IMG/VR virus record: IMGVR_UViG_3300037512_001279
Coordinates: 32,001 to 96,000 of that record
DNA from: a virus
Lineage: Duplodnaviria > Caudoviricetes
Strand: one strand, 5' to 3'
Length of the DNA stretch: 64,000 bases
Positions 1,826 to 49,900 of this stretch are shown in pieces. The notes under the pieces are model-generated. The model worked only from the letters and a program-made list of their open reading frames with translations. It ran no database searches and was not told where the DNA came from. The position numbers were made by a program, and so were the translations under genes. Within the stretch, counting starts at the first letter, position 1. The number at the start of each line of letters is the position of its first letter.

Positions 1826-2296
1826 ATGGGATTTATGAATAAGAACAAGAATAACAGAAAGTGTATTATTTGCGGAAAAGAATATTCTTACTGCCCCGTT
1901 TGCGGGAAGGACGTAAAAAAACCTTCATGGTACACAATTTTCTGTAGTGACAATTGTAACAGCATTTATGAAGCAGTTACAACCTTCAGAGATGGCGGAT
2001 GTACCGTTGAAGCAGCTCGTGATTTGTTGAACGGATTAGATTTAAAAGCAGTTGATAATGATGAATTTAATGCAACTACAAGAAAGCAGATTAAAGACAT
2101 TCTTAGCTTCAATGAAAAGAAAGATGAGGTTGTTGAGCCTGTAGCTGAGGAAGTAGTTGAGGAAAAAGTTGAGGCTGTTGAGCCTGTAGTTGAGGAAGTG
2201 AAAGAAGTTGTTAAGGAAAAGAAAGAAGAAAAGAAATCTTTCAATGGTTCAAATCAGAGCTTCAAAAAGAATAACTATAACAACTTTCGCAAATAA
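1826..2296 (+). CDS. Hypothetical Zn-finger protein with E/V-rich low-complexity tail
   Basis: CxxC-x6-CxxC...CxxxC; RBS AAGGAG. Confidence 0.6.
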   Translation: MGFMNKNKNNRKCIICGKEYSYCPVCGKDVKKPSWYTIFCSDNCNSIYEAVTTFRDGGCTVEAARDLLNGLDLKAVDNDEFNATTRKQIKDILSFNEKKDEVVEPVAEEVVEEKVEAVEPVVEEVKEVVKEKKEEKKSFNGSNQSFKKNNYNNFRK

Positions 2297-2417
2297 CATA
2301 GACGTCGGTGAATTTTTAGCATAGTGGAATATACTTGCCAACGTCTAATTTGGCTATGTGTATTCCATTTTTTTACTTTTATCGACAATTTTCGGAATGT
2401 AAAGGAAGAATAAATAT

Positions 2418-2639
2418 ATGGAGATTAGCAAACTTTCAAATAAAAAGTATTCATTAAAGGACGTTGTTCGTGTTATTGACCCAAAGCAACAAATGTTGTT
2501 CTGCAAACACATGGCATATCCTGTTGACATGTACGTTACGAAAGATTTGTATTCTGACAAAGACATACTAGTAATGCTGTTCAACAAAGAAGAAACTAGA
2601 GAATTATATATTAAGTGGAAAAACCACGAACTGAAGTGA
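2418..2639 (+). CDS. Hypothetical protein
   Basis: ORF with RBS-like AAGGAAG, co-oriented with its neighbours. Confidence 0.6.
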   Translation: MEISKLSNKKYSLKDVVRVIDPKQQMLFCKHMAYPVDMYVTKDLYSDKDILVMLFNKEETRELYIKWKNHELK

Positions 2640-2647
2640 GGTGCGCC

Positions 2648-2890
2648 ATGATTGAACATTTAGAAAAAGAAGTACGTCGCTACGTAATAGCGACTTTTGA
2701 CAATCCGACAAATTACGTCGTTTGTAATGGCGCATGTAATTATTCTTTTATTGACAACATACAAAACGCATCAAAGTTTGCGTCAGAATTTGCAGCAAAT
2801 GAAGTATATAAGTCTTTATATAAAAGATATAATATTGATCTCGTTGTTCTTCCACTAAGTATAAAATACGTTTTATTGGAGGAAGATTGA
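2648..2890 (+). CDS. Hypothetical protein
   Basis: GAGGTG RBS precedes ATG 2648 (MIEHLEK...), a better start than 2615. Confidence 0.55.
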   Translation: MIEHLEKEVRRYVIATFDNPTNYVVCNGACNYSFIDNIQNASKFASEFAANEVYKSLYKRYNIDLVVLPLSIKYVLLEED

Positions 2891-2916
2891 GTATAAAATA
2901 CGTTTTTTGGGAGGAA
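2858..2916. repeat. 27-bp tandem direct repeat immediately upstream of the cysteine desulfurase gene
   Basis: agtataaaatacgttttattggaggaa (2858-2884) vs agtataaaatacgttttttgggaggaa (2890-2916), 2 mismatches. Confidence 0.85.
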
Positions 2917-2921
2917 AAACA

Positions 2922-4034
2922 ATGTATTATCTTGACAATGCAGCGACCACTCCACTTACGGATGCGGTTAAGAAAAAAATTATTGAAGTTCTTGATGATT
3001 ATGGGAACCCAAGTTCTTCATATGATCTTGGTAAAAAAACAAAAAATATAATCGAAGACGCAAGAGAAGAAGTTAGGGGATTCATTCATGCTCCCGCAAA
3101 TTCAAACATCATATTTACTTCAAGTGGTTCTGCAGCAAACTGTCTCGCCATTAAAGGACTTCTTGGTTATTGTGACGAAGACGTTGTTTTATACTCTCCT
3201 ACTGCTCATAAGTCAATTATAAAATGCTGTAAAGAATATAAATATGCTCATGAGCTAAAGGTTGATTCTGAAGGTTTTATCGACTTTGATTATCTTGAAG
3301 AAAAATTAAAAAGTTATTGGCCAGAGATGGTTCTTGTATTCTTCGAGGCTGCAAATTCAGAGCTAGGTACGATTAATAAAATACGCGAACTTGTGAAGTT
3401 AATACATTCATACGGTGCTCTTGCAATTGTTGATTTTACTGGATACATACCATATTTCAAAGTTAATGTATGTGATCTTGACGTTGACGTTGCAACATTT
3501 TCAGGTCATAAACTTCATGCACTTAAAGGAGTTGGAGTTCTTTATAAGCTTGAAGACCTTGGAATGGCTCCGGTAGTTTACGGTTCTCAAGAAGATGGTC
3601 TTTTTGCAGGAACTGAAAACGTAATTGGAATAGCCTCTCTTGGAGAAGCCGTAAAGAATTATGATTATTCATTTGTAATGAGATATCAAAGGGATAAGCT
3701 TTGGGAAATGATTAGTAACGGAATTAAAGACTGTTACTTAATAGGTACAAAAAAGGAATATGACAGATTACCGTTTAATCTGTTTATTTGTTTCAATGGA
3801 GTTAACGGAAGTAATCTTGCGTCGCTTCTTGAAACAAAAGGCATTTACGTCTCAACAGGTTCGGCATGCAATAATGGTTCTGCAGAACCTTCAGACGCAT
3901 TAGTTGCAATTGGAATGAATGAAAACGATTATCATTCATGCATAAGAATTACTTTTAGTGGTGATGAAACTTTTATAGATTTACAGAAGATATATGAAGC
4001 AATTAAGGAGTCTGTTGACTTTTTGAGGGGGTGA
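2922..4034 (+). CDS. iscS: Cysteine desulfurase, IscS/NifS family (PLP-dependent class V aminotransferase fold)
   Basis: YLDNAATT N-terminus, FTSSGS, SGHK (PLP lysine), GTEN and STGSAC (catalytic Cys); RBS GGGAGG before ATG 2922. Confidence 0.9.
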   Translation: MYYLDNAATTPLTDAVKKKIIEVLDDYGNPSSSYDLGKKTKNIIEDAREEVRGFIHAPANSNIIFTSSGSAANCLAIKGLLGYCDEDVVLYSPTAHKSIIKCCKEYKYAHELKVDSEGFIDFDYLEEKLKSYWPEMVLVFFEAANSELGTINKIRELVKLIHSYGALAIVDFTGYIPYFKVNVCDLDVDVATFSGHKLHALKGVGVLYKLEDLGMAPVVYGSQEDGLFAGTENVIGIASLGEAVKNYDYSFVMRYQRDKLWEMISNGIKDCYLIGTKKEYDRLPFNLFICFNGVNGSNLASLLETKGIYVSTGSACNNGSAEPSDALVAIGMNENDYHSCIRITFSGDETFIDLQKIYEAIKESVDFLRG

Positions 4035-8489: not shown

Positions 8490-11400
8490 ATGGCTGGGAA
8501 TACTGTTAGTATAGGTTTTGACTACAGAAAACAATTAGAAAAAGCCTGTAAAGATATAGAGCAATCTTTTGATAAAGTAATATCTTCGAATGATTATGGC
8601 AAAGATTTTGAAAAACAGATAAAGAACTTTAAAACAATGATTGCCGACATGAAAGATGATCTTTCGGATTCTTTTAAAGCTTTGTCAGACGGGAAGTTAA
8701 GTACGGAAAAATTTGAATCCTTTAAAGAGAACGTTAATAAGAAACTTAAAAACATAAATGATAGAGTTTCAGATTTAACGACAAACATAGATCAATTAAA
8801 CAAGGCATTAGGTTTTACCGGAGATAGCGTTGATTTAACAAGTGCTATTAATCAATTTAAGGAGCTTCAAGAATATATAAATACAAACAATGAAGCCGTT
8901 GAAAGGTTATTAAAAACACTTCAAACAGTTGATGGAAATCTTGAAATAAATGTTCCAAAGTTTTCTATTGATGAGGCAAAAGCACAGATAAAGCTTCTAA
9001 AAGGAATGATTAATGATTTAATGCAGGGTTCAAAAGAAGATATTTCTAAAAAACTTGCATCAATGACATCTAGCCAAATAGAAGTACTTTATTATGATTT
9101 ATCAGATAAATTTTCTGAATTGCAAGAGAAAAAAGACGAATTATTAGGAAAGATAAATGCAGCGCCAGACCAAAAGGATGGCGCTGTTTTAGCATTTAGG
9201 TCTGAATTGTCGCAGGCAGAAATTGAGATATCTAAATTGGCAGAAGACATAGAGGAAATATTTCAGTATGCCGGAGAAAGAAAATTCAAGTGGTTTGATT
9301 CAACCAAAAACGATAAAACAACAGTAAAATTTAGAAATACAATTTTAGAAATTAATAACAGTTTTGATGAAATAGAGACTAAATCACAAAAAATAATTAC
9401 TGATTTGCAAAGATATGTTGATTCGTTTTCTAATACTACTGCTAAAGTATCAGACAAACTAGAGGCTAACACTGGCGAAGTAAATGTTCAAGTAAAAATA
9501 GCTACTAGAAATGCCACTCTTATAAATGAATTAAAAGATAAAATAGAAAAGTTGCAAGAAGCATTAAATAATAAACCTCTAATTTTACCTGTAAAAATGG
9601 TTGTATCAAATGCCAGAACTACAAGCGAAGACCCATTAAAAACTAGCAAAGATGCAATAAATAAGGCAAGGAAGAAATTAAAAGAATCAACTGAAGATGT
9701 AGATATGGCAGATGCAATTCCAAAGCAGACATTGAAACAGGCTCTTATTAATGCTGAACGTGCTGCGAAGGAATCGTTTACTAGAATCCAAGAAATCTTT
9801 GATAAAACTCCTATCAACATTCATTTAACTGTTCCAGAGGAAGAAATACAGAAAATATCTGATTCTGTGTTTAGTGAAGACGGTAAAACTAAAATTGACA
9901 TTTCAAAACAAATAGATAATGCAAAAAAGAGAACGGATGAATTAATAAAATCTCTTAAAGAGGCAGATGAGACTGCATCAAAAACATTAAAAAAGAATAA
10001 ATATGCAGGGCTTGCTGAAGAAATACAAAAAAGCTTATCAGGGCTTGAAAGTCTTAAAGACATTCTTACTGCTATTCGTGATTTAGAAAGCACTCTTGGC
10101 AGAGCTACAAATGTAGCGACGAATAGTGATATTACTACTCAATGGAATAAAGTAAAGTTTTGGTTTGATTATATTTCTGATGAATCTGACAATATTAACT
10201 TTAATAAGCAAAGAGATCAAATAAATACATTGATGTCTGAATATCAGAAATACCTAAAAATGGGTGGACAAAATCCTCTTAGAAATCTTACCGATAATGA
10301 AGAAACAATAAGAAAATTATATAATAGATTCAACAAATTAAAAGACGTATCAGGAGATAAAATTGATGTCTCCGGAGAAGTTAAATCATTCAATGAAATA
10401 ACGGGTGCGGTTGATGAGTTAACCGTTGCTATTGGTGAAAAGAAAGTAGATGCAATAAATCAAGAAGCTTTGGCAATGGAAAGTGCTGCAGAAAGAGAAG
10501 TCAAAGCAATAAAATCAATAGACGACGAAATATCAGCGGCTCATTCTTCAGGGAAAAAAAATAAGCAGGATAAAGAATTAAAGAAAGAAAATATCCAAAA
10601 CATAGATGAATCTTCTTCTAAAATTACAGAAGAGTCTTTTGCTCTAGATAAAACTGCTGAATCAGCTGCGAATGCTGCAGAAGCAAAAGACAAATTTAGA
10701 AAATCTAATGAACTTCTTGCTACGAGTGCAAAAGATTCTGCAGATGCGTTGGCTATTGAAACTAATGCCCTGCAAGTTATTGAGAATATTGATTTAGATC
10801 ATAATTCTGATGAATTTAGAAATGCAGCAGAAGCCGCAAGAATGTATTGTGACGGGCTTGGCGAAATAGCTTCTATTACAAGAACATCCGGAACATATAA
10901 TACATATAACAGAAATACAGGCGAAATGGAACAAATGCTAAGAACATCGTACAGAGTTACTGATGTTAATGGCAATAGTCGTACGTTTAATCCACAAGGC
11001 AATATAATTGGTGCTAAAGATATTATAAATGCTACTGCCGCATATAGAGAATACTTAAAGATACAAGAACAAGTTTTTGCGATTAATAAAAAAGAGGCAT
11101 CTGGACAAGAATTATTAAATAGAGAAATTTCAGATAGAGAAAGTTTACTTAGAAAGCTTTCAGAACAAGAGGAATTAATTAATTCAATTGAGTCTAGAGG
11201 CCTTGAAAATTCTGAACTTAGAGAAGAAGTTGAAAGGCGAAGAATCGCAAATCAAAGGACTATTCAACAAATACAAAAAAATAGTATCTTAAACGGGCCT
11301 CTTGAAGGTTACGAAAGACAATTCTCATCATTAAATACAGATAAAAATTTATCAAAACAAACCGACGAATATAGAAGCAGATTGTTAGAGATTAATGATT

Positions 11401-14400
11401 TACTTCAAAGATTACAGGCATATAGAGACATAGATATATTTACAGATGAAGACGTTAATGATGTTACAAATTTAAGAACGCAGATAGATGGTTTATTTAA
11501 TGACTTATCCAACATGGATAAGGCTGCGAATAAGGCAAAGTCTTCCAGCGTACTTTCAAACATTACCGACTTCATAGCAAAAAATAGCAGGTTAAATTTG
11601 TCAAAACAAGGTAAGGAATACCTTTCTCAACTTGAAGAGTTACAGGATAGACTAAGAAGGGTTGGTCTTACTTCTAATGACATTCAAGATGTTGTTGCTG
11701 AGTTTAACAGATTAAAAATACAAATTACAGAAGCAGGGCTGGCTGGAAGAAGCTTTTTTGACATTATGAAGTCAAAAGCTTTCTATATGGCTGCTGAATA
11801 TCTCGCAAGGTATTTTAGTTTGCAAGATATTATTCGCTATATTAAAACTGCTGCCCAAAATGTTATTAATCTTAATACTCAGTTTACTGAGCTTGCAAAA
11901 GTTTCAGATACAAGCATTAAAAAACTCAATGCAGACTTTAAAGCATACGCAGACACAGCAAAAGAACTTGGTAGTACAATCACCGACACAATTTCTGCAA
12001 CGGCAGACTGGGCTAGAATGGGATATAATATTCCTGATAGCAAAGAACTCGCCCGTGTTGCTTTGATTTATAAGAATGTTGGCGACGGTATTGATATAAG
12101 TGCTGCAAACGAATCACTGATTTCTACATTACAAGGTTTCCAAATGGAAGCAAAAGACGCGTTACATATAATTGACGTGTTCAACGAAACTTCGAACAAC
12201 TTCGCAATTAGTTCGGCTGGAATTGGTGAAGCGTTACAAAGAAGTGCAGCTTCGTTTAATGCTGCTCATACGAGTCTTGAAAAATCTGTATCACTTGTTA
12301 CAACAACAAATACTGTATTACAAGATCCACAAGTTGTCGGAAATTTGTGGAAGACCATGAGTGCTCGAATTCGCGGTAAATTTGTGCCGTTTTATAGCGA
12401 AAGCTATAATGTGTGTTTCGAGTAAAAAATAATTACACACATAGATAACTATATAAGTCAAAAGATGATGGGACATCAGAGACTTAGGAAAGACTTATGA
12501 TTTTTATATATTTTTTAATTGGATGAAGAAGCCTGATTATTTAGCACTACAATTATAAAATATAAAAATCATAAGTATCCCAAGAGACTGCAGGACGCAT
12601 GTGGTAACATATGTGTTGAAGTTATCCCACTCTCCTATTATAGGAAATGGTAATATACAGTCCGATCCTACAATATAATCCCAAATTAATAAAATGAAAT
12701 GTAGGAATTTGGTAGAAATACCAAATCGCCATATATTATGGTCATAAAACTATTTCTCTGTATAGTTTAAGTAACAGAATTGGCAAAAACAGAGCTTGAA
12801 GAATTAAATGAAGAAGAGGATGAATTTACTGAGTCTACTTCTAAATTAAGAAGCCTTGTAAAAGGCCTTACTGGATTTGATATCATGCAAGATGAAGATA
12901 CATTCAAAGATTTGTATGATATTATTATTGGCATTGGTAAAGAGTGGAAAAATTTAACAGACATAGAGCGTGCTAGTCTTGGAGAGGCATTGGCTGGAAA
13001 AAGAATGGCGAACGGTCTTTACGCAGTGCTTGATAATCTAGATACTCTAGAAAAGGCATATAAAACTGCATCTGAATCTGATGGTTCCGCAATGCGTGAA
13101 CAGGAAAGATATCAACAGTCAATTCAATATTCAATTGACAGAACAAAAGCTTCTATTGAAGAGCTGTCAAACTCTTTACTTAATTCTGATTTACTCAAAT
13201 TCCTAGTTGATGTTGCAAACGGATTTGTTAACATTACAAATGAAGTAGTAAAATTCTCCGGTCTTCTCGGAACTATCGGCATCGGTGCTGGAGCATTTGC
13301 CGGAATAAAAAATCTCGGTAGGAGTAAAAAGTTTCTCCTCAATTCATTGATGATTTGAAAATTTTTCAAAAATCTCTTGCATTTTATATGTACAGAGAAT
13401 ATAATTATATAAAAAGAAGAGGTAGTACCGTAGGACAAACGGTTCACCACAGTTTATAGTTACTGTATCAAATTAGCAACCACATACCTTGGGGAAGGGC
13501 GGTTGCTTTTTTGATGGTTTATTTTTTGAAATGATCTAAGTACAAGCCGTAGATTACAACAACCGTCTGAACAGTTGCTACGGCAAGTGCTAAGATAGCT
13601 ATTACCATCATAGTACTTTCGTACCCCTTCGTTCTTATTTGCCATAGGCATCACTCTCCTTTTATTAGCGAAAAGTATTCCTTTGGCAGTTCTTTGGTTA
13701 AAGAACAACCAAGCGACTGAAGGGTGAACCGCTTACCCGTTTTAGTACTATCCTCTTCTTGTGCATTATAATACTTTAAAGCATTCAAATTGTCAATAAA
13801 AAATATGCCGAGGCTCACGTCGTTTTATCCAGTAATGGAATTTTTGTCGTGAGTGAGTGGATACGCTACCACAACATAAACACCCAATATGATCCTAATG
13901 GATGCGCATGAGCAAACATGCGCCTGGGAAATGACATAATCCATTACTACTCTCCCGCTTTGGGTTTGTGAAAATGTAATGGATGTCATGGTCAGCAGGG
14001 AAGCTTCTGTTTACAGGAGAACCCCCACAGTAATGATATGGGTGGTAATATTAGCCTGAAACGACTAACATTACAATAGACATTCGAAACTAACCGACAT
14101 GGCGGTAATTTGCAGGAGGAAGTACTCTCCTCTCCATGAATTGTTGGGGCAGATCGGACTGCCTGAGTATGTCCAAAGTAAAAGCAACCACATAACGCGG
14201 TTGCTTTTTGAAATAAAATCAAAATTTTATTTGATAGGTTACATAAACTTAAACAAATATATAAAAAATACAATTATGCTTATAACAATCCATGATATTA
14301 AAAATTTCTTGAAAAATCTTATATTTTTATTTATAGTACGAAGATGTTGCGTGATTTCTTCTAATTGTTCGTAAGCATCAAACTCGTAACACTCTTCCAT

Positions 14401-17400
14401 TTCGACATTGCAGTCTTTGCAATAAGTATCAGGTTCATCAGATGGTAGGTTGGCATAATCATTACATTCAGGGCATTTATATCTCTTGTATTTAATCATA
14501 ATATTATCTCTCCTTATACTAAGTATAAATAATAACAAGAATTATTCCGCAAATTAATTCTAAAATCGTTAAAACAAAAAAGAATTTCATCATTTTATAA
14601 ATGCCATGTACGTCTTTCTCTAAATTATATGTTTTTTCAGTTGTCTGAGTGTTGTTAATATTTTCAACAACAGCTTCCGTCGTTGCTTCTACCTCACCAA
14701 AATTCTCAAGAGATCCTCCACAAACACGACATATTGATGGAACTTTATCTTCTGGTGAGATTTTGTATTCTTTGCCGCATTTATAGCAAACATATTTTTT
14801 TATTATATCCCCCAATTGACATCACCTCCATATTTTAAGTATATCAACCAACATGATATTAGTCAAATAGTTTGAAATTTTTAGGAACACTTCCACAACT
14901 TAAAACCGCAATATCTTCTATTAGTGGATTATCTACAGATTTATTAGCAAATGGAGCTGATGGTTACATAAATGCAGTTAAAGGAATGACTGCACAAAAC
15001 GCTCTTCTTGTATTGTCTTATAAGAATTTAAGCGCAGCAGAAAAGAAAGAGATTCTTATCAAGGCCGGTGTTATTTCTGCTGATCAAGAGTTAATTGGAG
15101 AAAATGCACTTTTAGCTAAGTCAAATATCTCATTATCCGGAACATTTGGTATTATTGCAAGGAAGGCTGCTATGTCTGCTGCAGCAATTTTATCCAATCC
15201 AATTACATGGCTAGTTGGTGCAGTAGCCGCAACTACAATTGCAATAAAGAAAATGAACGAAGCCGTAGAAGAAGGCAGAGATAAAGCACAGGAATTGGGT
15301 TCGGAATTTGCAGATATTTCGCAAGAGCTTGATTCTTATAAAGAAAAAATAACTGAATTAACAGACAAAATAAAAGACCAGAAATCTTCAATCGAAACCG
15401 TGGTTGATTCAAGAAGACAGCTTGGTAAAATTCAGGATGAGCTTGTAAATAAATACGGTCATGAAGCAGAAGTAATTAATGCTGTTACAGATGCTATTAA
15501 TGGTCAGTCAGATGCAATAAATAATCTGTTTAATACAGTGTCTGCAGATGAGTGGCAAAAGGTAATGAACCAAATTAATAACACTGGTTTTTGGGCAAAT
15601 GCGGCGAACTGGCGTGACAACTACAAAGATCAGGTTGATCGTATAGAGCATGAATTATTTAATGAAACATATTCATTAACCGCTGCTGATAGCAGAATAT
15701 CTGTAGAACAAAGAAAATATTTTAAGAGCCTGCTTACTGAAAGGGGATGGACATATAATGAAGATAATATGTTCATGCAGTACACCGGAAGTAGAGAAAA
15801 AGCATTAAATGATATTCTTGATATTCAACAGGAGTTATCAAAGAAATTTGGCGATGATTTATCAAAAGTTCTATCTAAGACATTAACAGATTCATATAAC
15901 AGCATTAATGAAGTCTACGAAAAGTATAAAGAATTCAAAGATCAGTTTGTATTAAATTCTGTAATATTTAATCCACAGTACATGTTACAAAATGGTGAAG
16001 CAAACGGAGATTACCTTGCAAATGTATTATTAGGTTTAGAGGAAGAATACGAAGCATATATTTCGGCAGCAAACGAAGATGCTCAAAAGGCTGCCCTGCA
16101 AGGTCTTGCAAATCACCTAAGAGAGATTTTCAGCGAAGAAAATATTCCACAACTTGTTAAGGATTACATTAAACAATTATTCCCAACAATTTTTACAGAA
16201 GAAGATACAAAAATCACTCAAATAGAAAACGCAAAAAATCTTGCTAGAAATAAGGCATACGACAGTTTATATGCTGAAGCTTCTGGCTCTATGAATCGTA
16301 CTGATCAAGAAAAATTCAGAGAAGCTACTGGATTTGACAAAAAATACAATGCATTCATAGAAGAATATAAGATTGACTCCGAAGAAGAACTTGAACTTCT
16401 TGATGCATATATTGCAAAATATAAAGATCTTGATAAGGCATTTAGCCGGTATGCACAGGATGTAAAAACAGAATCACCTGTTCTTGATTACGAAGGCAAA
16501 AAAGACAGATCTAATTATACCGCCGACGATTACATAGAAGAAACAAAGTCTAACATCATTTCTCTTGGTGACGCTCTTAATAAACTTCAGACTAAAACAA
16601 TGACGTCTGCAGACAGAATGGCATTGTTTAAAGATTTTCCTGAGTTAGAATCAAGAGCAAACGACCTTGAAGAAGCGATTGGCGAAAAACTCGTCGGAGC
16701 AATTGATACATTAGAAAAGACAACCGGTAAGCAGTTAGCGCCTGAAATTAGACAGGGACTATTTGAACTTACTAGCGGCGCACTTCAAGCAAACAGAACT
16801 CTTAATGAAACGTTTAATACAATTAAAAACAGTTCAAGTGTTCTTAAGGAATTTAAGACAACTCTTAAGAATGGCGATCCAATTACTGAATCACTACTCT
16901 CTTCCATCGCAGGATTAAGTGACGAACTTGACACCTTAGTCGCAGGATTCTATGGCGGCGTTGTAACAGTTGAAGAGCTTTATGATGCCGTTGAAAAACA
17001 GCGTGAAGTTGATTTTGAGCGTTACAAGCAGTCTTACATAATGAAGCAGGCGCTCGATGAGAATTACTATAAAAATGCCATTGCGGGGCATAAAGAAGTA
17101 GTAAAACTGTTTAATGAACAGTATAAGATAGACCTTAGAAATTATACAAGCTATCAGATGGCGAAGTCTGAAGTTCAAAAGAAGATTCTTGGTCAGAATA
17201 TGAAGATGATATCTTTATATTATGACATTGAACAGATGCAATATACGGATGCCTATGCTAAACTTGAGAATGAAGCAAAGGCTTCTGTTGGACATTCTTA
17301 TGGCGAATATACAAAAGTTCGTTCTCTAATAAACGAATATAAACAAGCCATTGATGACCTTAATCAAATCGGCTGGACTGACTTCTTGGATGAACTTGAC

Positions 17401-20058
17401 AAGATGACTCTTGGCGATTTTGACAAGATTTCGGGTTCTACTAAGGATTATAAGGAACTCTTCGACTTCTTTGAGCGTCGTCTCGAAATTATTGATCAAT
17501 CGCTTAATAAGCTCGACGCATCACTTGAAGAAGTAAACGGCTCCATGGCAAAGAACATTCTTATTGCCGGTAAGATGAACATCGTGTCGAAACAGATTCA
17601 GGACTACACTTCTGCCCTCACGATGTACGAAAATAAGGCAAATCAGGAGCTGTCAAAACTCTCTGCAGACATGCAGGAAAAGATTAAGAACGGCTCTGTA
17701 AGCATTACTCAGCTTATTGGCGAGAATGGCGAAGAAGTTAACAAGACACTCGAGGAATACAAGAAGTGGGCAGACAAAGTAAACGACTGCAACGTTAAAC
17801 TTCTTGAGCTGCGTGAAACTCTGCGTGACCTCGCGCTTGAGAAATTCAACAACATTGCACAGGATTACTCCGACCAGTTTGACATTCTTGGTTCATCTAA
17901 CGACCTAATTGAAAAACAGATTTCATTGTTTGAAGAGGCAGGTCAGTTAATCGGTCGTGCGTTTTATGAAACTCAAATCGAGGCATCTCAGAAACAACGC
18001 ACAATTCTTGAGAAAGAAAAAGCCGCGCTTATTAAAGAGATGACGTCGGCGCTCTCTTCCGGTTACATTCAGAAGGGCAATGATGAATGGCTCGAAATGG
18101 CGAAGAGCATACAGGAAGTTGATTCCAGTATTCTCGACGTTGACCAATCCATAGAACAGCTTCAGAACTCCTTACTCGAACTCAACGACAAAGTATTTGA
18201 ACGCCTGCAGAATACGTTCTCAGACATCAATTCTCAGCTTTCCAACATTGTTGGAATGATCAGTGACGTTGACGTATCTGACGAATCTGGCGTATGGTCT
18301 GATGAAGGTCTTACTCAGTTAGGCGCATATGCACAGCAGTATGAGCTTGCGAGACACAACGTTGAGAAATATGAGGAAGAGATTCAGAAGCTCAATCAGT
18401 CCTACAGCGACGGTTTGTACTCTACTACGGAATACATTGACAAGCTCTCCGATCTTGCTCAGGCACAATGGGAGCAGGCCAATGCTGCAGAAGATGCAAA
18501 GAAGTCCATACTTGAACTTAACAAGGCAAGGGTTGAACTCGTAAAAGAAGGAATTCAAAAGCAGATTGACGCTTACAAGGAACTTATTGATAAGCAGAAA
18601 GAGGCTCTTGACCAGGAGAAATCCATCCGCGATTACGAGAAGACCATTGCAGAAAAGAATAAAAACATCAACAAACTGCAGAATCAGATTAACCTGTTAA
18701 GGAATGATGATTCTGCCGCGGCAAACGCTAAGAGAATTAAGCTTGAACAGGAGCTTGCTGATGCCAAGGCTGACCTTGAGGAAACTCAGTATGATCATTC
18801 AGTAGAGGCACAGAAGGAAGCCCTTGACAAGCAACTTGAAGATTTTGAAGATGCAAGGCAACAGGAAATTGATGAGTTAGAGGAATACCTGAAAGACGTC
18901 GAAAGGGTTCAGAAGGATTCGTTTGAAATCATCAAAAAGAATACCGACAAGATTGCAAAGCAAATCGAGAACATTGCCAAGACTCACGGCGTTGTTATTT
19001 CTGAAGCGATCACTAATTCTTGGAAGTCAGGTGAAGGGGCAATCGCCTCTTACGGTACTGCACTCTCATCTGCTTCCAGTGGATTTATTCAGCAGATCCA
19101 CGAGATTGAAATATATCTCGTCGCACTTCAGGATGAAGCTGACCTAACCGCAGACAGACTTGTTGGAATGTTGTCGGCTAAGGCTGATAACCTTCTTAAT
19201 GAATTTAATGCTGCAAGAGATTCCGAGAATGAACTTATCAGGGCAACCAATCTTCTTAATGAAGCATTGATTAAGACTCTTGAGGGTAATTATGACATTA
19301 GCGGAATTATTGGTGCGTTAAAGGAAGTTCAAAATCAGGTTGACGAAACCAAAAATAAGTTAACTGGTTCAACAAGCACAGGCAACGTTTCAAGTTCTAC
19401 TCAAAAAGCAATTCAGGATACCGTTTCTGCCGTTGCAAACGCAGGAGTCAAGGTTATTCCTGACGAACAAGTTAATGCAATAAAGAAACAGCAGGAACTT
19501 GATGCTCTCTCGTTTGATTATTACTATTACTGGAAACCAAAGACTCATGAGTATACGGCAGAGTATAAGAAACTTTCAGATGCCGTAAGATCTGGAGACA
19601 GTCAGGCTGCAATAGTTAAGAATAAGGTTGACAATGCCGTAGCAAGTTATCTTGCGAAGGAAGCTGCGATACTCAAGAAGTATGAAGGATTTGCCACCGG
19701 CGTACACAACCTTAACAGAACTCAGTTCGCATGGACTCAGGAGCAGGGTAACGAACTTGTGCTCTCTCCTACCAGAAATGCGATTCTTACCAAGCTAAAC
19801 AAGGGTGACACCGTACTTACTAAGGATCAGACAGACAACTTGTTTAAGTTAAGCAAGATTGATCCTGATTCCATCTTTGGTAAATTCGGCAAGATCAACG
19901 GAGTTGCAAGAGTTGAAGCTCCCGTACTTAGCATTGGAAACGTTCTTACCGTTAATGGAAACATTGACGACACGAATGCAGAAAAGATGAAGACCATTGC
20001 AATGTCTGCAATCAACACGGCCTTCAAGAAGTTCTCTAGTGAAATCGTTAAAAGATAA
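8490..20058 (+). CDS. Tape measure protein, spliced from exons 8490-12377, 12783-13319 and 14875-20058 (predicted 3202 aa)
   Basis: Long coiled-coil ORFs with a TP901-type TMP core (TISATADWARMGY...IIDVFNE..NNFAISS). Removing two group I introns joins the frames in phase: ...MSARIRG|AKTELEE... and ...GIKNLG|KFLGTLP...; C-terminal GFATG...WTQE.G.E motif. Confidence 0.85.
12378..12782 (+). ncRNA. Group I intron 1 in the tape measure gene (405 nt, ORF-less)
   Basis: 5' exon ends GCGGU, pairing with IGS GCCGU (U-G wobble at the splice site); UUUGU pairs with 3' exon GCAAA (P10); P7 GACUG (12586-90) / CAGUC (12658-62) within GAGACUG and AAUAUACAGUCC elements; terminal G at 12782; in-frame join. 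Confidence 0.92.
13377..13405 (+). promoter_or_regulatory. Sigma-A-type promoter for a putative antisense RNA inside intron 2
   Basis: TTGCAT-N17-TATAAT. Confidence 0.7.
13412..13512 (+). ncRNA. Putative antitoxin antisense RNA (about 100 nt)
   Basis: Lies between the 13377-13405 promoter and the terminator agcaacc...ggttgctttttt (13475-13512); convergent with and overlapping the 3' end of the small-peptide transcript. Confidence 0.55.
13519..13611 (-). CDS. Putative type I toxin peptide MMVIAILALAVATVQTVVVIYGLYLDHFKK (30 aa; not in the ORF track)
   Basis: Single hydrophobic helix with a KK C-terminus; GAAGGGG upstream; overlapped by a 63-aa leader ORF (13651-13460, RBS AAAAGGAGAG); own promoter with TTGACA at 13796-13791. 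Confidence 0.65.
   Translation of the reverse strand: MMVIAILALAVATVQTVVVIYGLYLDHFKK
14180..14209. terminator. Bidirectional terminator ending the intron-embedded antisense operon
   Basis: aaaagcaacc-acataacgc-ggttgcttttt. Confidence 0.75.
14239..14499 (-). CDS. Zn-ribbon protein with C-terminal TM helix (intron cargo; candidate superinfection-exclusion factor)
   Basis: CPEC...CKDC and a hydrophobic C-terminus; RBS AAGGAGAG before ATG 14499. Confidence 0.75.
   Translation of the reverse strand: MIKYKRYKCPECNDYANLPSDEPDTYCKDCNVEMEECYEFDAYEQLEEITQHLRTINKNIRFFKKFLISWIVISIIVFFIYLFKFM
14519..14815 (-). CDS. Zn-ribbon protein with C-terminal TM helix (intron cargo; same architecture as 14239-14499)
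   Basis: CYKC...CRVC and a hydrophobic C-terminus; RBS GGAGGTG. Confidence 0.75.
   Translation of the reverse strand: MGDIIKKYVCYKCGKEYKISPEDKVPSICRVCGGSLENFGEVEATTEAVVENINNTQTTEKTYNLEKDVHGIYKMMKFFFVLTILELICGIILVIIYT
14838..14866 (-). promoter_or_regulatory. Sigma-A-type promoter of the cargo genes, overlapping the intron P7 3' strand
   Basis: TTGACT (14866-14861)-N17-TATACT (14843-14838). Confidence 0.75.
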
Positions 20059-26302: not shown

Positions 26303-28687
26303 ATGGCAAATAATAACATGGGCTTGAGCGGTGAAGAAGCTCTTGCCATTGCGATAAAGAAATCTAATTCATATACAGATCAAGAGATTTCAAAAGTCAG
26401 AACCAAATTTCAGGTAGTTGCTTCTTATTCAGACCTTCCTGACCCTGGAAGAACTGATACGATTTATTTGGTTCCGCAGTCAGGGCATCCTGGCGTATAT
26501 GACCAATATATTTACGAAAACAACCAATACGTTGACATTGGAGATACCGAGCTTGATTTAGCTGAGTATGCTACCGACGAAGAACTTCAGCAAGGTTTGG
26601 CGCTTAAAGTCGACAAAGTTCAAGGAAAAGGACTCTCCACAGAAGATTATACTACCGTAGAAAAGACGAAACTTTCCGGAATTGAAGACGGCGCTACTAA
26701 TACTGTTGTAGACAGCGCACTCTCCACTTCTAGCGAGAATCCTGTTCAAAATAAAGTTGTAACAACAGAAATTAACGCAATCAACGCTACTTTGGCTAAC
26801 AAGGCCAATACGAGCGGATATTATGAAGATTTTGTTGCAGGAAATGCCGAGCAGCTTTTGTCTAGCGTAAACGAACAAGACAGTACGCCGTATTTATTTA
26901 GAACAACTGGCGGTTCCATTGATGTTGGAAATCGTGAGACTAACACAATCGTTGGCGGCACTATCGCGTGGAATCAACTTGTGCCTGCAATAACGTCCGG
27001 AGAAATATACAATAATAATGGTATTACTTGTTATTCAAATGGTGATGGAAGTTTTACGCTAAATGGAAAAGCAACAACAACGTCTAATTTTGTTTTAGTT
27101 AATGAATTTATGACTCCAATTGATCATATTTTTTATGTTTGCGGATATGTTAAAGACAGTGCAAATACTGCAAGTGCCTTAAGTTTTCGCGGCACTAAGG
27201 TTGATTATGGAAATGGTGCGATATGGAAAAATACTTCGGCATATTCAAGCATGAACGTTAGATTAGACTATATTATAAATGCAACTTACTCGAATACAAT
27301 TATTAAACCGCAAGTATTTGACCTCACGCAAATGTTCGGGCCAACCATTGCAGATTATCTGAATACATTGGAGTCTGGCACACCAGGTGCTGGGATTGCG
27401 AAACTGAAATTGTGGGGACTCTGCACAAAGTCGTATTATGCATATAATGCTGGAGAGCTTTTGTCAGTTAAGACTAGTGCTCATAAGATGGTTGGATTTA
27501 ATCAGTGGGATGAAGAATGGGAAATTGGCAGCATTGATCCTGCAAATGGTTCAAATACAGTAACAACAAATACAATTCGTTCTAAAAATTATATTCCAGT
27601 AATTGAAGGATTGATTTATTATATTAATTCACCATCGAATAATAATGGCATATATCAGTTGTATTTATATGATGAGAATAAAAACTATATAGGTCTTAAA
27701 GATTTTAATTCTATTACTAACAAATTATATACAATACCATCTGGTTGTCATTATTTAAGATTTAGAACTTATGCTTCTTATGGAACAACATATAACAATG
27801 ATATTTGTATTAACATTTCTTGGGATGGTGAGAAGGATGGAAACTATGAATCTTACGTTGAGTATGAATATCCGTTAGATTCAGACCTTGAACTCAGAGG
27901 TATTCCTAAATTAGATGTAGATGACAGACTCTATTATGACGGGGACACTTATGAGAGTGACGGAACGGTGACAAGAAAATATGAGATTGTTGATCTTGGG
28001 ACGCTAACGTGGACAAGAACAGGAACTGGATTGTTTAACACGGAATCGTTAAAAAATGAAATAAGAAAACCGTCAACAAGTCTAACCGTGGCAACATGGA
28101 TCATTAGCCCAATTTATACTGCCATGAATAGCAATGACATAAGCGGGCCTAACGGGGCAAATCCGTCACCAGATAAAGTAATGGCAGTAAATCCGCAAGG
28201 AGCCATGTATTTTAACAACGTTGCATATACGGATGCAGCAACGTTTAAGACTGCAATGAGCGGTGTTTACCTTGTTTATGGATTGGCAACGGAAACCACA
28301 GAATCCGCAGATCCATTTACTAATCCACAAATTTGTGATGATTTTGGTACTGAGGAATACATTGATACTAGAACTATTCCGATTCCTGTAGGTCACATTA
28401 CTGAATATACACAGAATCTGAAAGCAAAACTTGAAATGGCGCCTGATAGTCCTGATTCAAATGGTGATTACATATTGAGGCATCAGAACGGAGTTAACGT
28501 ATACGTACCTCACACTGGCGGTGGCAGTTCGTTACCAGAAACTCCGCAGAACGATGGTGAGTATTATCTTAAAAACACCGTTTCAAGTGGATCGCCAACA
28601 TTAAGTTGGGACGGCGACATACTTGCGTCGCTTGGACTCAGCATCGTTAACGGTGAACTGTGCGTGACGTACAGTGAAAATGAATAA
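26303..28687 (+). CDS. Tail fibre / receptor-binding protein
   Basis: KVDKVQGKGLSTEDYT and VDSALSTSSENPVQNKV fibre motifs; mosaic beta-rich domains. Confidence 0.7.
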   Translation: MANNNMGLSGEEALAIAIKKSNSYTDQEISKVRTKFQVVASYSDLPDPGRTDTIYLVPQSGHPGVYDQYIYENNQYVDIGDTELDLAEYATDEELQQGLALKVDKVQGKGLSTEDYTTVEKTKLSGIEDGATNTVVDSALSTSSENPVQNKVVTTEINAINATLANKANTSGYYEDFVAGNAEQLLSSVNEQDSTPYLFRTTGGSIDVGNRETNTIVGGTIAWNQLVPAITSGEIYNNNGITCYSNGDGSFTLNGKATTTSNFVLVNEFMTPIDHIFYVCGYVKDSANTASALSFRGTKVDYGNGAIWKNTSAYSSMNVRLDYIINATYSNTIIKPQVFDLTQMFGPTIADYLNTLESGTPGAGIAKLKLWGLCTKSYYAYNAGELLSVKTSAHKMVGFNQWDEEWEIGSIDPANGSNTVTTNTIRSKNYIPVIEGLIYYINSPSNNNGIYQLYLYDENKNYIGLKDFNSITNKLYTIPSGCHYLRFRTYASYGTTYNNDICINISWDGEKDGNYESYVEYEYPLDSDLELRGIPKLDVDDRLYYDGDTYESDGTVTRKYEIVDLGTLTWTRTGTGLFNTESLKNEIRKPSTSLTVATWIISPIYTAMNSNDISGPNGANPSPDKVMAVNPQGAMYFNNVAYTDAATFKTAMSGVYLVYGLATETTESADPFTNPQICDDFGTEEYIDTRTIPIPVGHITEYTQNLKAKLEMAPDSPDSNGDYILRHQNGVNVYVPHTGGGSSLPETPQNDGEYYLKNTVSSGSPTLSWDGDILASLGLSIVNGELCVTYSENE

Positions 28688-31030: not shown

Positions 31031-32221
31031 TTATGATGACAATGCTTTTTTGATTTGGGCTTGAGCCTCCTCAAAAGTCTTGTCAGAATAGTAGTAGTAA
31101 TCACGTGTGCAGTTAATATTCGTGTGTCCCATTTGTTTGATGATGAGTCTTTCGTCTACCCCGCCGTTAATAAGTTTCGTGGCATACGTTTTTCTGATTT
31201 TATGCATTGACCTTGGAGGTATTCCAAGTTTTTTACACAGTCTTAGAAGTCTCAACGTAAAACACCTGCTTAGGATTCTTTCTCCATTTTTCATAAACAT
31301 GTATTCACCGAATGGATTTTTCTTCCGTATTGTCGCAAGTATTTTTTTAGCCTCGTCATTTAATATGATCGTTCTGTTACCGGCTTCGGTCTTAGGAGAC
31401 TCTCTAACCTGGAATACGTAGCCACCATCTTTGTCCTTGAACCGTTCCTCTGTCTTTGTGATGCTCAACAAATCCCCAGTGACGTCGGAGTGCTTCAATG
31501 CAGAAAGTTCTCCTACTCTCAACCCTGTTTGAAAAACCAATAGAATTCCAAGGTCAATTAAGCTAGACCTCTTCCACAATTCGAACTCAACAGCATCGAT
31601 TTCTTCTTTTGTGAAAACCGAATCTTCATCTCGAATAACCTTTTTCTTAAAGGCTTTTCTTGACAGTTCGAGATAATCACCGAAGAAATCTTTTGCACTT
31701 ATGTCCGTGTATCCCCGTTTTTTGCCATACTTTAAAACGCCTATAATTAAGGTTCTTACACCATTGTAAGCCTTGTAAGACAGATTAAAGTCGGAAATTG
31801 TTTTCTTAATAAAGTCTTCAAGCTCTGACTCCGTCAGTCGTTGCAGTTCTACCTTGTCGAAACCAGTTTTTACAAAGTATCTTGTAAAGTCCGTCCTGTA
31901 ACGATCATATGTTTGTTTTTGTATTTCATTATATTCTAGTTTCCTGTCCACCCATTTGTCAAAAATTTCTCCAAACGTGTTCACCTGACTATGTTGGAAT
32001 ATCAGGTCTTCAATTTCTTCTTTTGTTTTCTTTCGCTGCAACGCCCTCCCTTTCCTTGAATCATCAATGTACGTGTACCAATAACCGTTTTCTCCTTGCC
32101 AAATTTTGTGATTGTGTTTTTGCAGTGCTTCTTCTTTTTTCTTCATATCAATTTGGTCGCTTAATAAGTTCGCGTCTATTATACCATTCTTTAACGCGAA
32201 ATTCAATGTACTTTCATTCAA
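31031..32221 (-). CDS. int: Tyrosine integrase
   Basis: TGLRVGEL (R), SPKT (K), HKIRKTY (H-x-x-R), MGH, YY. Confidence 0.92.
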   Translation of the reverse strand: MNESTLNFALKNGIIDANLLSDQIDMKKKEEALQKHNHKIWQGENGYWYTYIDDSRKGRALQRKKTKEEIEDLIFQHSQVNTFGEIFDKWVDRKLEYNEIQKQTYDRYRTDFTRYFVKTGFDKVELQRLTESELEDFIKKTISDFNLSYKAYNGVRTLIIGVLKYGKKRGYTDISAKDFFGDYLELSRKAFKKKVIRDEDSVFTKEEIDAVEFELWKRSSLIDLGILLVFQTGLRVGELSALKHSDVTGDLLSITKTEERFKDKDGGYVFQVRESPKTEAGNRTIILNDEAKKILATIRKKNPFGEYMFMKNGERILSRCFTLRLLRLCKKLGIPPRSMHKIRKTYATKLINGGVDERLIIKQMGHTNINCTRDYYYYSDKTFEEAQAQIKKALSS

Positions 32222-46966: not shown

Positions 46967-49900
46967 TTATACCTGAATGCTGTTGCAAATGTCGTAATCA
47001 GTAACCCACCATTCCTTCTCGTCCGTGTCAGTCCATTTGCCGTTAACCATAACCTTTTTATTCTGTTTCGCCTGATTCTTAACCTTGATGATGTCACCAA
47101 TTCGGATCGGATTGTTTTCAAACAACTTCTTTGCAATCTTAACCGGAATGGTATTGCCATTCGCCATGGCATATAGCTTAAGTTTTGGCGAATATTTTGT
47201 ATCTAAATCAGTAACATAGCAATATCCTGCATACTTCTTGTCAACTATGTCAACATATCCAAGGTTTTCCATTTGATACGCTATTTTTTGTTTAGTAGTA
47301 GTCCTGTATGTCCTGTATTTATCAGACAGAATCTTTACCAATTTAGCGCCGTCCAACTCCATAAAAGTCTTGGGAGTCTCTTTACTGCAACACGACCTGA
47401 TTAATTCAAAATCAAGACCACTCTCCAAAGCCTTGTCTTTTTTAATCTGCTTCTTTGAATAATATTCAGAAAAGTATTCGTTGCACTTCAACAAATAAAC
47501 AATATCGCCAAACTCCTCGAAGAAATTCAACTTTATTAGAATATCAAGTTTCCTACTGTCAACCTTCAGGTCGCCAATTCTTGCCAATAAATCAATAAAC
47601 GAATCAAATGATTCTTCTCTAATGGAATACAGATCATCTGCCGCAGTTTCGTTAAGGAATTTTACAGACTCAATTCCTTTATAAATTCCAGTTTCGTCAC
47701 ACGAATATTTTGCGGTTGAGTGCCTAAATTTAATGCTATGAATAGGAATTCCAAGTTGTTTTGCCAATTGAGTACCCATCATAATGTCGTCTTCGTTATT
47801 GGCATTATTAAGGTACGCCGTGATAAATTCCTTCGGATAATAATAACGCAAGTATGCGCACATATATCCAATCATTGAATAACCAGTGGAATGATTATCG
47901 TTTTACCCATTATTTCTAATGGAACAGACTATATCATCAACTTAATTACTTAAGTTGTCTTGCACTACCGGTGGCAACTCATCTTCCACCGTCTTATACA
48001 TAATGTATGTTTAGTCGTTTGACCTTATAAACTAAAATTAGTTTATCTTGGCACAGGATTGACACCAACTTTACTTGCTGTGCTTTCCCTGTTAGCGCAA
48101 TTTTTAGCCATCATTTCCTATGGTTACTAAACGTAAATTGCACACCCATGAGTAATATGGTTCACAAGATTATTCAATATACGTCACCGTATAAGGGGGC
48201 TAATCATCCTAACCCAAATTGATAACTTGCACTGTCTTCAATGATTTGTAAGAACGCTTTGGCTTCTTTCTCAGCAACGTCTCTCGTCTTATCAGATTTA
48301 CTGCAATATCCTTCAAGGATTGCAGGTAATGCAGCTTCAAGTCTATCCTTTTGTTTTCTACCTATTGCACGACGAATGTTGTCTGCCTGAGATCCACTAA
48401 GACCACATATGTTTGTAAGAAATTTGATTGTATCCTCCTGGAATACCAAATATCCATCGTTTTCTTTTAGAAGGTCGTCGATTAATTTTGACGGATTTTT
48501 ATTTGGAATTTTGGCAAGAAGCCTATCTCTATAACTTTCACCTGACGGACGCAATGCTGCATTTACCAAAGACAAATCGTTAACACAAGCACACTTAAAC
48601 TTTTTCATTAGATCGAATGCATACCTGCCTTCAAATTGAAACACGCCTACTGGACTATCTCCAATATGATCCCACACATTTTTATCTAGCCAATCTACAG
48701 TGTGAGACTTAGGATACGGAATGCCTGCCAAAATACAAGTATCCTTAATAATCTCAATGTTCTTCAATCCCAACAAATCATACTTTACAAGGCTTACCTC
48801 GTGGATTTCCTCCATGTTAATCGACAGAATTCTTTTGCCGTCCTTCGCCCAGAAAGTGCCGTAATTGTCAGGAAGTGTTACCGGACTAACTATAATTCCT
48901 GCAGGATGCATGGATTGTGCTATTGTAGTTCCAACAAGTCCGTCAAAATAATAGAATACTTTTGGATATTCAATTTCCTTCAGTCTCTTCAATGCCTTTT
49001 CTGCATTTTCAATCTTTTTCTTGCATTCTTCTAAGTCATTCTGAAGCTTTTCCGTCTGAACTGTTTTAAGATTTTCCTCAATCTTCTTCATCTTTTCTTG
49101 CGTATCTGCGATTGTTGACGTGAAGTTTGAGTATAATTCCTTAATGTTCTTTACTTCATCTAAAGGAATGTCAAGTGCCCTGCCGATTTCATCAATCGTT
49201 CCTTTGTCAGAAACCGTAGTCATTGCAAGCACGTATGCGGTTTTGTCAGCACCAAACTTCTCAATAATGTGATCATACACAAGCTGTCTCTGTGACGGAG
49301 AAATGTCAAGATCAATGTCGCCAATTTCTTTACGGTCTTCGTTAGCAAATCTTGAGAATACCGTATTCCATACAATTGGATTAACGTCTATAATGTCAGT
49401 CAAATATGCTATGGTCGAACCGCCAACCGAACCCCTACAGAACCCCACCGGAATGTCGTTATCCCAACACCAGCACACAAGCTCTGACATGAACAGCATA
49501 AATCCAATCATTCCAATCTTTTTGAAAACTCTAAGCTCTTCCTGGATGTTCTCTTCATATCTTGGATCAGGTTGAATTATTCCTTTTTCAAGCTTCTCGT
49601 GGTACATTCTGTATATTCTTTCAACAAAAACTTCTTCTTCGTTGTCATACAGAACCGGATATTTAAATGCCGTGTCAAGTTCATAGTCTTCAACCATGTC
49701 TGCCATGCGATTAGTATTCTCTATGGCTTCTAATACAACGTCCATTGGCAATGAATTTTGCTGTCTAAACATTGCAACAAGTTCATCATAAGACTTGTAA
49801 GTAAGATCAAACTCGTCTTCATTTGAGAATTCAATCTTCTTAGCCTTTTGAAGGATGCTTCTGCACTCGGCCTTATATTTATCAAGGCTATGCGTATCCG

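Follow-up and report, generated by a model that had tools for sequence, protein, structure and literature searches.

A predicted group I intron, one of a family at a single codon of phage tape measure genes, carries opposite-strand cargo without a recognizable nuclease

INTRODUCTION

Group I introns of phages are textbook selfish elements whose sole passenger is a homing endonuclease. In the nrdD (sunY) intron of phage T4, a compact 5′ core is followed by an open reading frame (ORF) placed 3′ of the core, a single sense-strand homing endonuclease gene, and the remote 3′ splice site is returned by the P9.0 and P10 pairings. Here, we describe an insertion of 1,555 nucleotides (nt), at positions 13320 to 14874, in the tape measure protein (TMP) gene of a virus of the Caudoviricetes. 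The analyzed window of 64,000 nt covers positions 32,001 to 96,000 of IMG/VR virus record IMGVR_UViG_3300037512_001279, which is linear, 121.6 kb long, and about 80% complete. An earlier note, made from the letters alone, had proposed that the insertion is a group I intron with opposite-strand cargo in place of a nuclease, a proposal that the comparisons below support. Compared with the T4 nrdD intron, the window intron is similar in its 5′ core, its cargo 3′ of that core, and its P9.0/P10-held 3′ splice site, but it differs in carrying two antisense non-nuclease genes with a promoter and a terminator, in having its P1 loop enlarged by a second insert, and in lacking P7.1/P7.2, a hallmark of the IA2 subgroup.

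Other large introns invite comparison. IStrons, which occur in Clostridia and their phages, are group I introns fused to IS200/605 or IS607 elements, and the entire element of 1.4 to 2.6 kb, with a 5′ ribozyme and multigene cargo after the P9 domain, is spliced from host mRNAs (PMC4227781). Their transposase/TnpB cargo moves the element, which occupies many sites, after T-rich pentanucleotides, and has an IA2-type core with P7.1/P7.2 (PMC4227781). The window intron shares the ribozyme at the 5′ end and the multigene cargo after the P9 domain, but it has neither a transposase/TnpB gene nor P7.1/P7.2, and its family occupies one conserved TMP codon, with defense, toxin-antitoxin, and membrane-protein genes where IStrons have a transposase. 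The hexacoral mitochondrial intron ND5-717, very old and fixed, carries in P8 housekeeping genes of its genome that are unrelated to intron mobility. ND5-717 has been described as a giant group I intron that leaves the mitochondrial transcript at the RNA level, reportedly by back-splicing (PMC6545197); the window intron differs in being viral rather than organellar and in having a cargo that is accessory, variable, and largely antisense. Finally, the TMP gene of Thomasclavelia phages TR-TP1 and TR-TP2 (PQ571309 and PQ571310) is annotated in pieces separated by inserts, but these inserts hold sense-strand HNH endonuclease genes in the classical arrangement, and the TMP genes of both phages show no similarity to 13320-14874.

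Group I introns in tail and tape measure genes have been described, as have IStrons and ND5-717. A literature search of incomplete coverage, such that an earlier description is possible, returned no phage introns with defense, toxin-antitoxin, or membrane-protein cargo, and the family presented here is apparently undescribed so far. If spliced, its members include some of the longest group I introns of bacteria and phages to our knowledge.

RESULTS

The insertion interrupts the tape measure gene in frame

On the plus strand of the window, the TMP gene falls into three open pieces (8490-12425, 12780-13358, and 14872-20058 by ORF calls). The TMP gene of the related contig L003 is uninterrupted and encodes 3,971 amino acids (aa), and BLASTP places the first piece on residues 1552-1909, the second (from AKTELE) on 1910-2088, and the third collinearly thereafter. 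L003 aligns across both window junctions, RIRG/AKTELE and KNLG/KF (slashes mark the junctions; in the global alignment, GAFAGIKNLG/KF in the window corresponds to GAFLGFKNVG/IF), which delimits two precise insertions, 12378-12782 (405 nt) and 13320-14874 (1,555 nt), each preceded by a GGT codon and ending in TTG. Excision of 13320-14874 is in frame in the alignment to L003. The predicted spliced junction, 13319/14875, reads ...AATCTCGGT / ...ATCTCGGT joined to AAATTTTTAGG, and the predicted junction-spanning TMP peptide is ...GIKNLGKFLGTLPQLK. The 9.6 kb of TMP exon contain no stops and no frameshifts. A group II intron is ruled out by the boundaries, which are not GUGYG...AY, and an intein is ruled out by stop codons in frame.

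Gene callers list the pieces as separate proteins, and the TTG at 14872 opens a long ORF, as would be expected if splicing did not occur and TMP were made as separate polypeptides, with exons 1 and 2 ending at the stop at 13356 and exon 3 starting from that TTG. We regard this as highly improbable: the frame of exon 3 is closed at 14860 and open only from 14863, 12 nt before the junction; the sequence upstream of exon 3 contains no Shine-Dalgarno sequence or ribosome-binding site before 14872; the junction is exact relative to L003; and the covarying P1, P10, and P9.0 pairings described below would be purposeless without splicing.

With the exon-2 protein (the 192-aa middle ORF) as the query, more than 200 stand-alone homologues of about 200 aa were retrieved from metagenomes. 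Many of these end a few residues past ...FAGIKNVG, with tails such as RPKMFGL and RDKMYSL (RSKKFLL in the window), and in-frame tails of this kind are the signature of a conserved nucleotide sequence that is read through. Within a phage collection, blastn and tblastn found relatives for the 405-nt insertion (intron 1) and exon 2 only, with no match to the 1,555-nt insert or to the start of exon 3, and a search for related loci with the N terminus of exon 3 found nothing.

Splice-site pairings covary in about 60 related loci

Relatives were assembled from the contigs of three middle-ORF homologues and with a DNA pattern that joined the end of the exon to the first hairpin of the intron, yielding about 60 loci. 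This pattern replaced a looser one whose hits were mostly chance matches, and in genome contigs it recovered at least about 12 true loci. In these phage and prophage loci, the intron lies at the same TMP codon as in the window; TMP homology flanks the inserts of relatives, and none occurs inside them.

At the 5′ splice site, P1 pairs CUCGGU (13314-13319) with the guide GCCGAG (13807-13812), placing a U-G wobble at the splice site. Among the approximately 60 loci, exon and guide change together, giving five hexamer combinations (ATCGGT/GCCGAT, GTCGGT/GCCGAC, TTCGGT/GCCGAA, GTTGGT/GCCAAC, and CTCGGT/GCCGAG in the window). The guide is 487 nt from the 5′ splice site in the window, compared with 29 to 47 nt in all relatives. 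Compensatory changes also maintain the P1 extension hairpin, which has the form AGGNN-loop-NNCCU in relatives (AGACC/GGUCU, AGGGA/UCCCU, GGGGC/GCCCU, and others).

At the 3′ splice site, P10 (13799-13806 with 14875-14882) forms 7 of 8 pairs in the window and 7/8 to 7/9 overall, and it tracks the 3′ exon (AAAAAUAU/AAAUUUUU in the window and UUGAAUAU/AUAUUCAA in relatives). The terminal intron base, 14874, is G, as it is in all relatives whose 3′ ends were mapped, for which P9.0 and P10 were used. All 6 positions of P9.0 pair in the window (the J7/9 hexamer AAACUA, 14087-14092, with UAGUUU, 14868-14873), and its hexamers covary in relatives (GUACUA/UAGUAC, GAACUA/UAGUUC, GAACUA/UAGUUU, and AUACUA/UAGUAU) although they are 0.5 to 7.6 kb apart. 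The covariation of P9.0 and P10 implies that selection acts on the RNA and favors excision of the entire element together with its cargo, and the two pairings would constitute the classical selection of a remote 3′ splice site. Thus, the boundaries, P1, P10, the terminal G, and the P1-loop insertion, all of which the earlier note had read from the window, are borne out by homology and covariation.

The core has group I topology

The stretch from 13799 to 14180 is free of ORFs, relatively rich in G+C, and alignable with the sequence that follows the guide in relatives. The helices mapped within it (Table 1) have the topology of the group I P3/P7 pseudoknot, with P3 spanning P4-P6 and P7 spanning P3′ and P8. 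P7 covaries in relatives (AAUG/CAUU, AGCG/CGCU, AGUG/CACU, and ACUG/CAGU) while its bulged A is kept, and the G-C pair beside this A is invariant in 22 sequences; P7 is the predicted guanosine-binding site, having the bulge and the neighboring conserved G-C pair that mark such a site.

This covariation places P7 at 14032-14037/14080-14084 and displaces the P7 first proposed, GACUAA/UUAGUC: GACUAA is part of P8, on its 3′ side, and UUAGUC shares bases with the -35 box of a cargo promoter. The idea of a catalytic strand that also serves as a promoter -35 box falls with that assignment. Because P7 is relocated, the second cargo block cannot lie between the P7 strands, as had been thought; it occupies 14183-14867, 3′ of P9.2. 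Nor is P9 reduced to a minimal element, since P9, P9.1, and P9.2 fill 14093-14176 and the terminal UAGUUU belongs to P9.0, as its 3′ strand. No P7.1/P7.2 of the IA2 type is present in the window core because P3′ (14039-14044) abuts P8 (from 14045), leaving no room.

In a 22-sequence alignment, standard pairs make up 81.9% of cells, compared with 59% after shuffling and 32 to 41% when partners are slid by 1 to 3 columns, and 41 of the 47 core pairs show changes on both sides; the core covariation score is 0.60 versus 0.18. From 21 relatives, with the window left out, we built a covariance model covering P6-P7-P8; it matched the window at 13991-14110 with 73.8 bits (E, 1.2e-21), the next best match in the 64 kb reaching 10.8 bits. 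Additionally, an unconstrained minimum-free-energy (MFE) fold of 13799-14215 recovered most of the helices (z, -4.4). The P9 columns and the P2 register are poorly aligned (alignment A1) and were excluded from the model or read by eye. On the evidence of these pairings and alignments, 13320-14874 is a group I intron.

Cargo units in the P1 loop and after P9.2

The P1-loop insert (block 1) is shut off by two stems in the sense RNA, and an MFE fold of 13308-13860 (z, -8.55) recovered both of these stems along with P1 and the extension hairpin. Read on the minus strand, block 1 consists of a promoter, a leader, the 30-aa ORF, and the hairpin at 13475-13512. A sense RNA of about 100 nt, running from the weak promoter-like site at 13377-13405 to the same hairpin, is a candidate antitoxin RNA, and the block looks like a type I toxin-antitoxin pair. 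Like the type I modules of Firmicutes prophages, such as txpA/RatA and bsrG/SR4, it has an ORF for a short hydrophobic peptide whose C terminus is charged and a predicted convergent small transcript that would share the terminator. The 30-aa ORF has a strong promoter-like site, but the antisense promoter is weak, and, unlike those modules, block 1 has no family match: the peptide matched no protein family, and no Rfam match for an antisense RNA was found. We know of no precedent for a toxin-like module inside the P1 loop of an intron.

Block 2 follows the complete ribozyme and contains two minus-strand genes with strong ribosome-binding sites, whose 98-aa and 86-aa products are weakly alike (paralogy E, 0.06). 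Pfam returned only weak zinc-ribbon matches for the window cargo. Searches with the 98-aa protein gave no related loci and protein atlas leads that were all subthreshold, and the homologue search with the 86-aa protein returned only itself. The minus-strand sites 13796..13768 (11/12) and 14866..14838 (10/12) are the top two promoter matches of the region, consistent with the view that the opposite-strand ORFs have promoters of their own. The claim that the cargo includes no nuclease also stands: no nuclease domain (LAGLIDADG, GIY-YIG, HNH, His-Cys, or PD-(D/E)xK) was found in any ORF of 13320-14874, and Pfam detected no transposase/TnpB or recombinase there. The hairpins at 13475-13512 and 14183-14212 have identical arms, of 12 and 13 nt, which suggests that they share an origin or that a terminator module was duplicated, and both have their better T-runs on the sense strand.

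With promoters and terminators of their own, the cargo units are moron-like, and a DNA-level mobile cassette, removed by recombination and not by RNA splicing, could present the same aspect. This is the least probable of the explanations considered, given that the insert has no terminal repeats, no target duplication, and no recombinase and that its ends are defined by RNA pairings.

The ribozyme is conserved while the cargo changes

The comparison of relatives proposed in the earlier note yielded the anticipated pattern, in which the core is conserved and the cargo varies, spanning 0.76 to 8 kb of different genes. The introns measure 757, 909, 1,023, 1,555 (window), 1,937, 2,023, 2,287, and 3,151 nt, with a longer set at 5,603, 5,730, 5,744, 5,777, 6,288, and 8,038 nt. 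A single ribozyme subtype has near-zero cargo in locus L172 and 5.7 to 8 kb in L175, L205, L207, L216, and L161. The cargo of relatives includes PemK/MazF with a helix-turn-helix partner, DUF3825, Cro/C1-type regulators, and a lipoprotein. Another cargo product, a GmrSD_N/DUF262 protein of 325 aa, aligns with the PADLOC NsnA profile over its full length (E, 1e-31). There is a tendency for sense genes to follow the ribozyme and for antisense genes to precede the 3′ splice site, where a small zinc-ribbon family (CPYCxS...HCNNCGSDF) recurs in antisense orientation. The family is widespread and occupies one TMP codon in gut Clostridia phages and prophages. At the level of the family, comparison strongly supports the idea that accessory genes have a safe site in the ribozyme.

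Several details of individual loci are recorded here. The DUF262/GmrSD_N proteins (325 to 331 aa) are encoded on the sense strand in L175 (3016-3990), L161 (2066-3040), and L010 (6204-7199), with a strong ribosome-binding site and directly after the ribozyme, and they could be defense proteins or an unrecognized homing nuclease. In many members of the family, the small proteins with a C-terminal CPYCxSxNTKKI...HCNNCGSDF module are encoded directly upstream of the 3′ splice site, and such a protein is the only sizeable ORF of L203, a compact 1,089-nt candidate whose 3′ end is less certain. The intron 5′ signature appears twice, about 1 kb apart in locus coordinates, in L250 and L288 (Lachnospiraceae metagenome-assembled genome [MAG] contig CAJTYM010000008.1, 100 kb), which may be overlapping fetches of a single site.

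Evidence against splicing and expression of the window copy

Several observations weigh against a functional intron with expressed cargo. The P1-loop insert occurs in the window copy only and is absent from all of the approximately 60 relatives. P5b is shortened in the window, with the GNRA-capped P5b of most relatives lost. The two hairpins, each with its better T-run toward the sense strand, could stop TMP transcription; a TMP transcript would thus need to read through both, which is the main caveat. Promoter-like sites in this AT-rich region are no commoner than in shuffles. The 98-aa and 86-aa cargo proteins are orphans without homologues, whose function, including the host interaction suggested in the earlier note, is a guess. 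Lastly, Rfam model RF00028 gave no match to the 1,555-nt intron even at an E value of 10. At its gathering and E-value thresholds, RF00028 also misses the family in the relatives searched, compact ones included, as well as intron 1; we attribute these misses to a gap in what the model covers and do not count them against the intron.

A decaying intron in a defective phage would account for some of these features: the only P1-loop insert among about 60 loci, the lost P5b tetraloop, and the sense-strand terminator hairpins would together abolish efficient splicing, leaving TMP effectively a pseudogene, and the linear, incomplete record fits with this. We consider such decay unlikely, since P1, P10, and P9.0 each match the window copy's own exon and 3′-end sequences, the long TMP exon is undamaged, the insert is neatly closed by long stems, and the intron of L010 likewise contains a sense-strand terminator-like site.

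The position of the second terminator, directly after P9.2, together with a 3′ splice site held by P9.0 and P10 only and a plus-strand promoter-like site at 14309-14337 (10/12), raises a further alternative: the upstream transcript might stop at 14183-14212 and be spliced in trans to a second RNA from the cargo region that brings the P9.0 and P10 strands and exon 3, or TMP might depend on late antitermination. Promoter-like matches occur here at chance frequency, however, and the compact relatives (757 to 1,023 nt) fit ordinary cis-splicing; we know of no trans-splicing of this kind in phages and judge it very unlikely.

Other introns and the phage

Intron 1 is a probable group I intron. It is preceded by U, ends in G, contains a possible P7 (GACUG/CAGUC), and has 72% identity to the 3′ part of the HNH-containing TMP insert of Thomasclavelia phage TR-TP1; L005 has a weak RF00028 match at the intron-1 site. 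The first TMP gap of L012 contains a sense TnpB (OrfB_IS605/Cas12f-like) gene at 2222-3307, which possibly represents an IStron-like element at the intron-1 site. The sole group I intron detected by Rfam in the window (47906-48160, minus strand, 57.5 bits) interrupts a DNA polymerase III alpha (PHP/DnaE-like) gene, leaving pieces of 766 and 302 aa, and there is a near-threshold Rfam group I match outside the window (G000 27455-27797). Counting these two, intron 1, and 13320-14874, the phage has at least four introns.

Three tyrosine recombinases (Phage_integrase) are encoded in the record, at 31091-31546 and 63628-64000 of the window and a third elsewhere, which is unusually many for one phage. 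Members of the intron family were located on MAG contigs, as long as 337 kb, from Lachnospiraceae and Ruminiclostridium. Together, the recombinases and the contigs on which relatives reside make a temperate lifestyle plausible for the window phage.

TABLE 1 Features of the tape measure gene and its insertions (window coordinates; the last row lists loci in relatives)
Feature	Position	Strand	Description or basis
TMP exon 1	8490..12377	+	ORF; ends ...ARIRG; aligns to L003 1552-1909, last residue exactly G
Intron 1	12378..12782	+	405 nt, no ORF; junction exact by homology, RIRG/AKTELE
TMP exon 2	12783..13319	+	179 codons; last 6 nt, CUCGGU 13314-13319, are the P1 5′ strand
Predicted group I intron with cargo	13320..14874	+	1,555 nt; intron-less homologue, covariation, covariance model
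P1 extension hairpin (AGGAG ... CUCCU)	13320..13339	+	Conserved in all relatives; in MFE fold
P1-loop insert	13347..13796		About 450 nt; closed in sense RNA by 13-bp stem 13347-13359/13784-13796 and an inverted-repeat stem
Weak promoter-like site, TTGCAT-17-TATAAT	13377..13405	+	Read from sequence; -35 only 3/6; unlisted by promoter scan
Terminator-like hairpin 1	13475..13512	+	Sequence; T6 run on plus strand
30-aa hydrophobic ORF	13519..13611	-	C-terminal DHFKK; candidate type I toxin
Promoter-like site, TTGACA-17-TATTAT	13768..13796	-	Promoter scan, 11/12; minus-strand small transcript
P10 5′ strand (13799-13806) and internal guide GCCGAG (13807-13812)	13799..13812	+	Pairing, relatives
Ribozyme core	13813..14176	+	Helix mapping, covariation, covariance model, MFE
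P2, P2a, P2.1	Start of core 13813..14176	+	Helix mapping
P3	13881-13886/14039-14044	+	Covaries within subgroup; spans P4-P6
Two extra hairpins	13892-13923	+	Helix mapping
P4	13924-27/13992-95	+	Helix mapping
P5; P5a (13940-47/13976-83); short P5b; P6/P6a	Within 13813..14176	+	Helix mapping
P7, AAUG[A]U/ACAUU	14032-14037/14080-14084	+	Covariation
P8	14045-54/14065-74	+	Helix mapping
J7/9, AAACUA	14087-14092	+	P9.0 5′ strand
P9 (14093-14106); P9.1 (14115-14133); P9.2 (14148-14163)	Within 14093-14176	+	Helix mapping
Terminator-like hairpin 2	14183..14212		Bidirectional; T5 run on plus strand, T4ACTTT on minus strand; closes block 2
Cargo gene 2, 86 aa	14239..14499	-	CxxC...CxxC zinc ribbon and C-terminal transmembrane helix; ribosome-binding site AAGGAGAG
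Cargo gene 1, 98 aa	14519..14815	-	N-terminal CxxC...CxxC zinc ribbon and C-terminal transmembrane helix; ribosome-binding site GGAGGTG 14823-14829
Promoter-like site, TTGACT-17-TATACT	14838..14866	-	Promoter scan, 10/12, TG-extended; serves two cargo genes
P9.0 3′ strand UAGUUU (14868-14873) and terminal G (14874)	14868..14874	+	6/6 pairs with 14087-14092
TMP exon 3	14875..20058	+	First 8 nt are the P10 3′ strand
CPYCxSxNTKKI...HCNNCGSDF family	L008 7123-7422; L012 4930-5319, 5950-6408; L146 11378-11815; L203 11024-11284; L161 8280-8786		

DISCUSSION

The comparisons argue, with good though not full confidence, for a complete group I intron in the TMP gene that belongs to a large family at the same codon, is spliced, and carries accessory transcription units. 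Splicing, predicted here from pairings and homology, would proceed as follows. In the sense pre-mRNA, P1 would pair the last six exon bases with the guide 487 nt downstream, and the two long stems would shut off the P1-loop insert, holding the guide close to the 5′ splice site. A compact core, P2-P9.2, would fold at 13813-14176, and the 3′ splice site, 700 nt further on, would be docked by the 6-bp P9.0 and the 8-bp P10. Guanosine-initiated splicing would then join KNLG to KFLG, yielding a TMP of 3,202 aa.

The regions that tolerate insertions, namely, the P1 loop and the tail after P9.2, would hold self-contained units, mostly on the opposite strand: a convergent-transcript module with the 30-aa hydrophobic peptide in the first and a two-gene operon for zinc-ribbon membrane proteins in the second. 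Such units could be expressed from their own promoters regardless of the late tail operon, and splicing would remove them from the TMP message. We infer that the two internal terminators are read through, and what is proposed for the timing and function of the cargo has the same footing.

A broader proposal, which we advance tentatively and hold to be more doubtful than probable, is that the TMP intron is a dedicated accessory-gene island. The 5′ ribozyme module and the 8-nt 3′ end would bracket an exchangeable bay of 0.3 to 7.5 kb for defense, toxin-antitoxin, exclusion-type membrane, and lipoprotein genes, which would be transcribed independently in the lysogen and erased from the late message by splicing. 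The P1 loop of the window copy would be a second bay, and its terminators may impose late antitermination or trans-splicing.

The family is of interest in that its ribozyme stays at a single site within an essential structural gene and carries kilobases of mostly non-nuclease genes that change, among them candidate antiphage defense (GmrSD/NsnA-like) and toxin-antitoxin genes. It explains the hundreds of tape measure fragments of about 200 aa that gene callers produce from gut metagenomes, and it reveals a common intron family that the Rfam group I model misses. If splicing occurs as predicted, these introns would provide temperate phages with a new way to store lysogeny-expressed genes without breaking an operon, and they would represent a new kind of defense-gene hotspot to mine.

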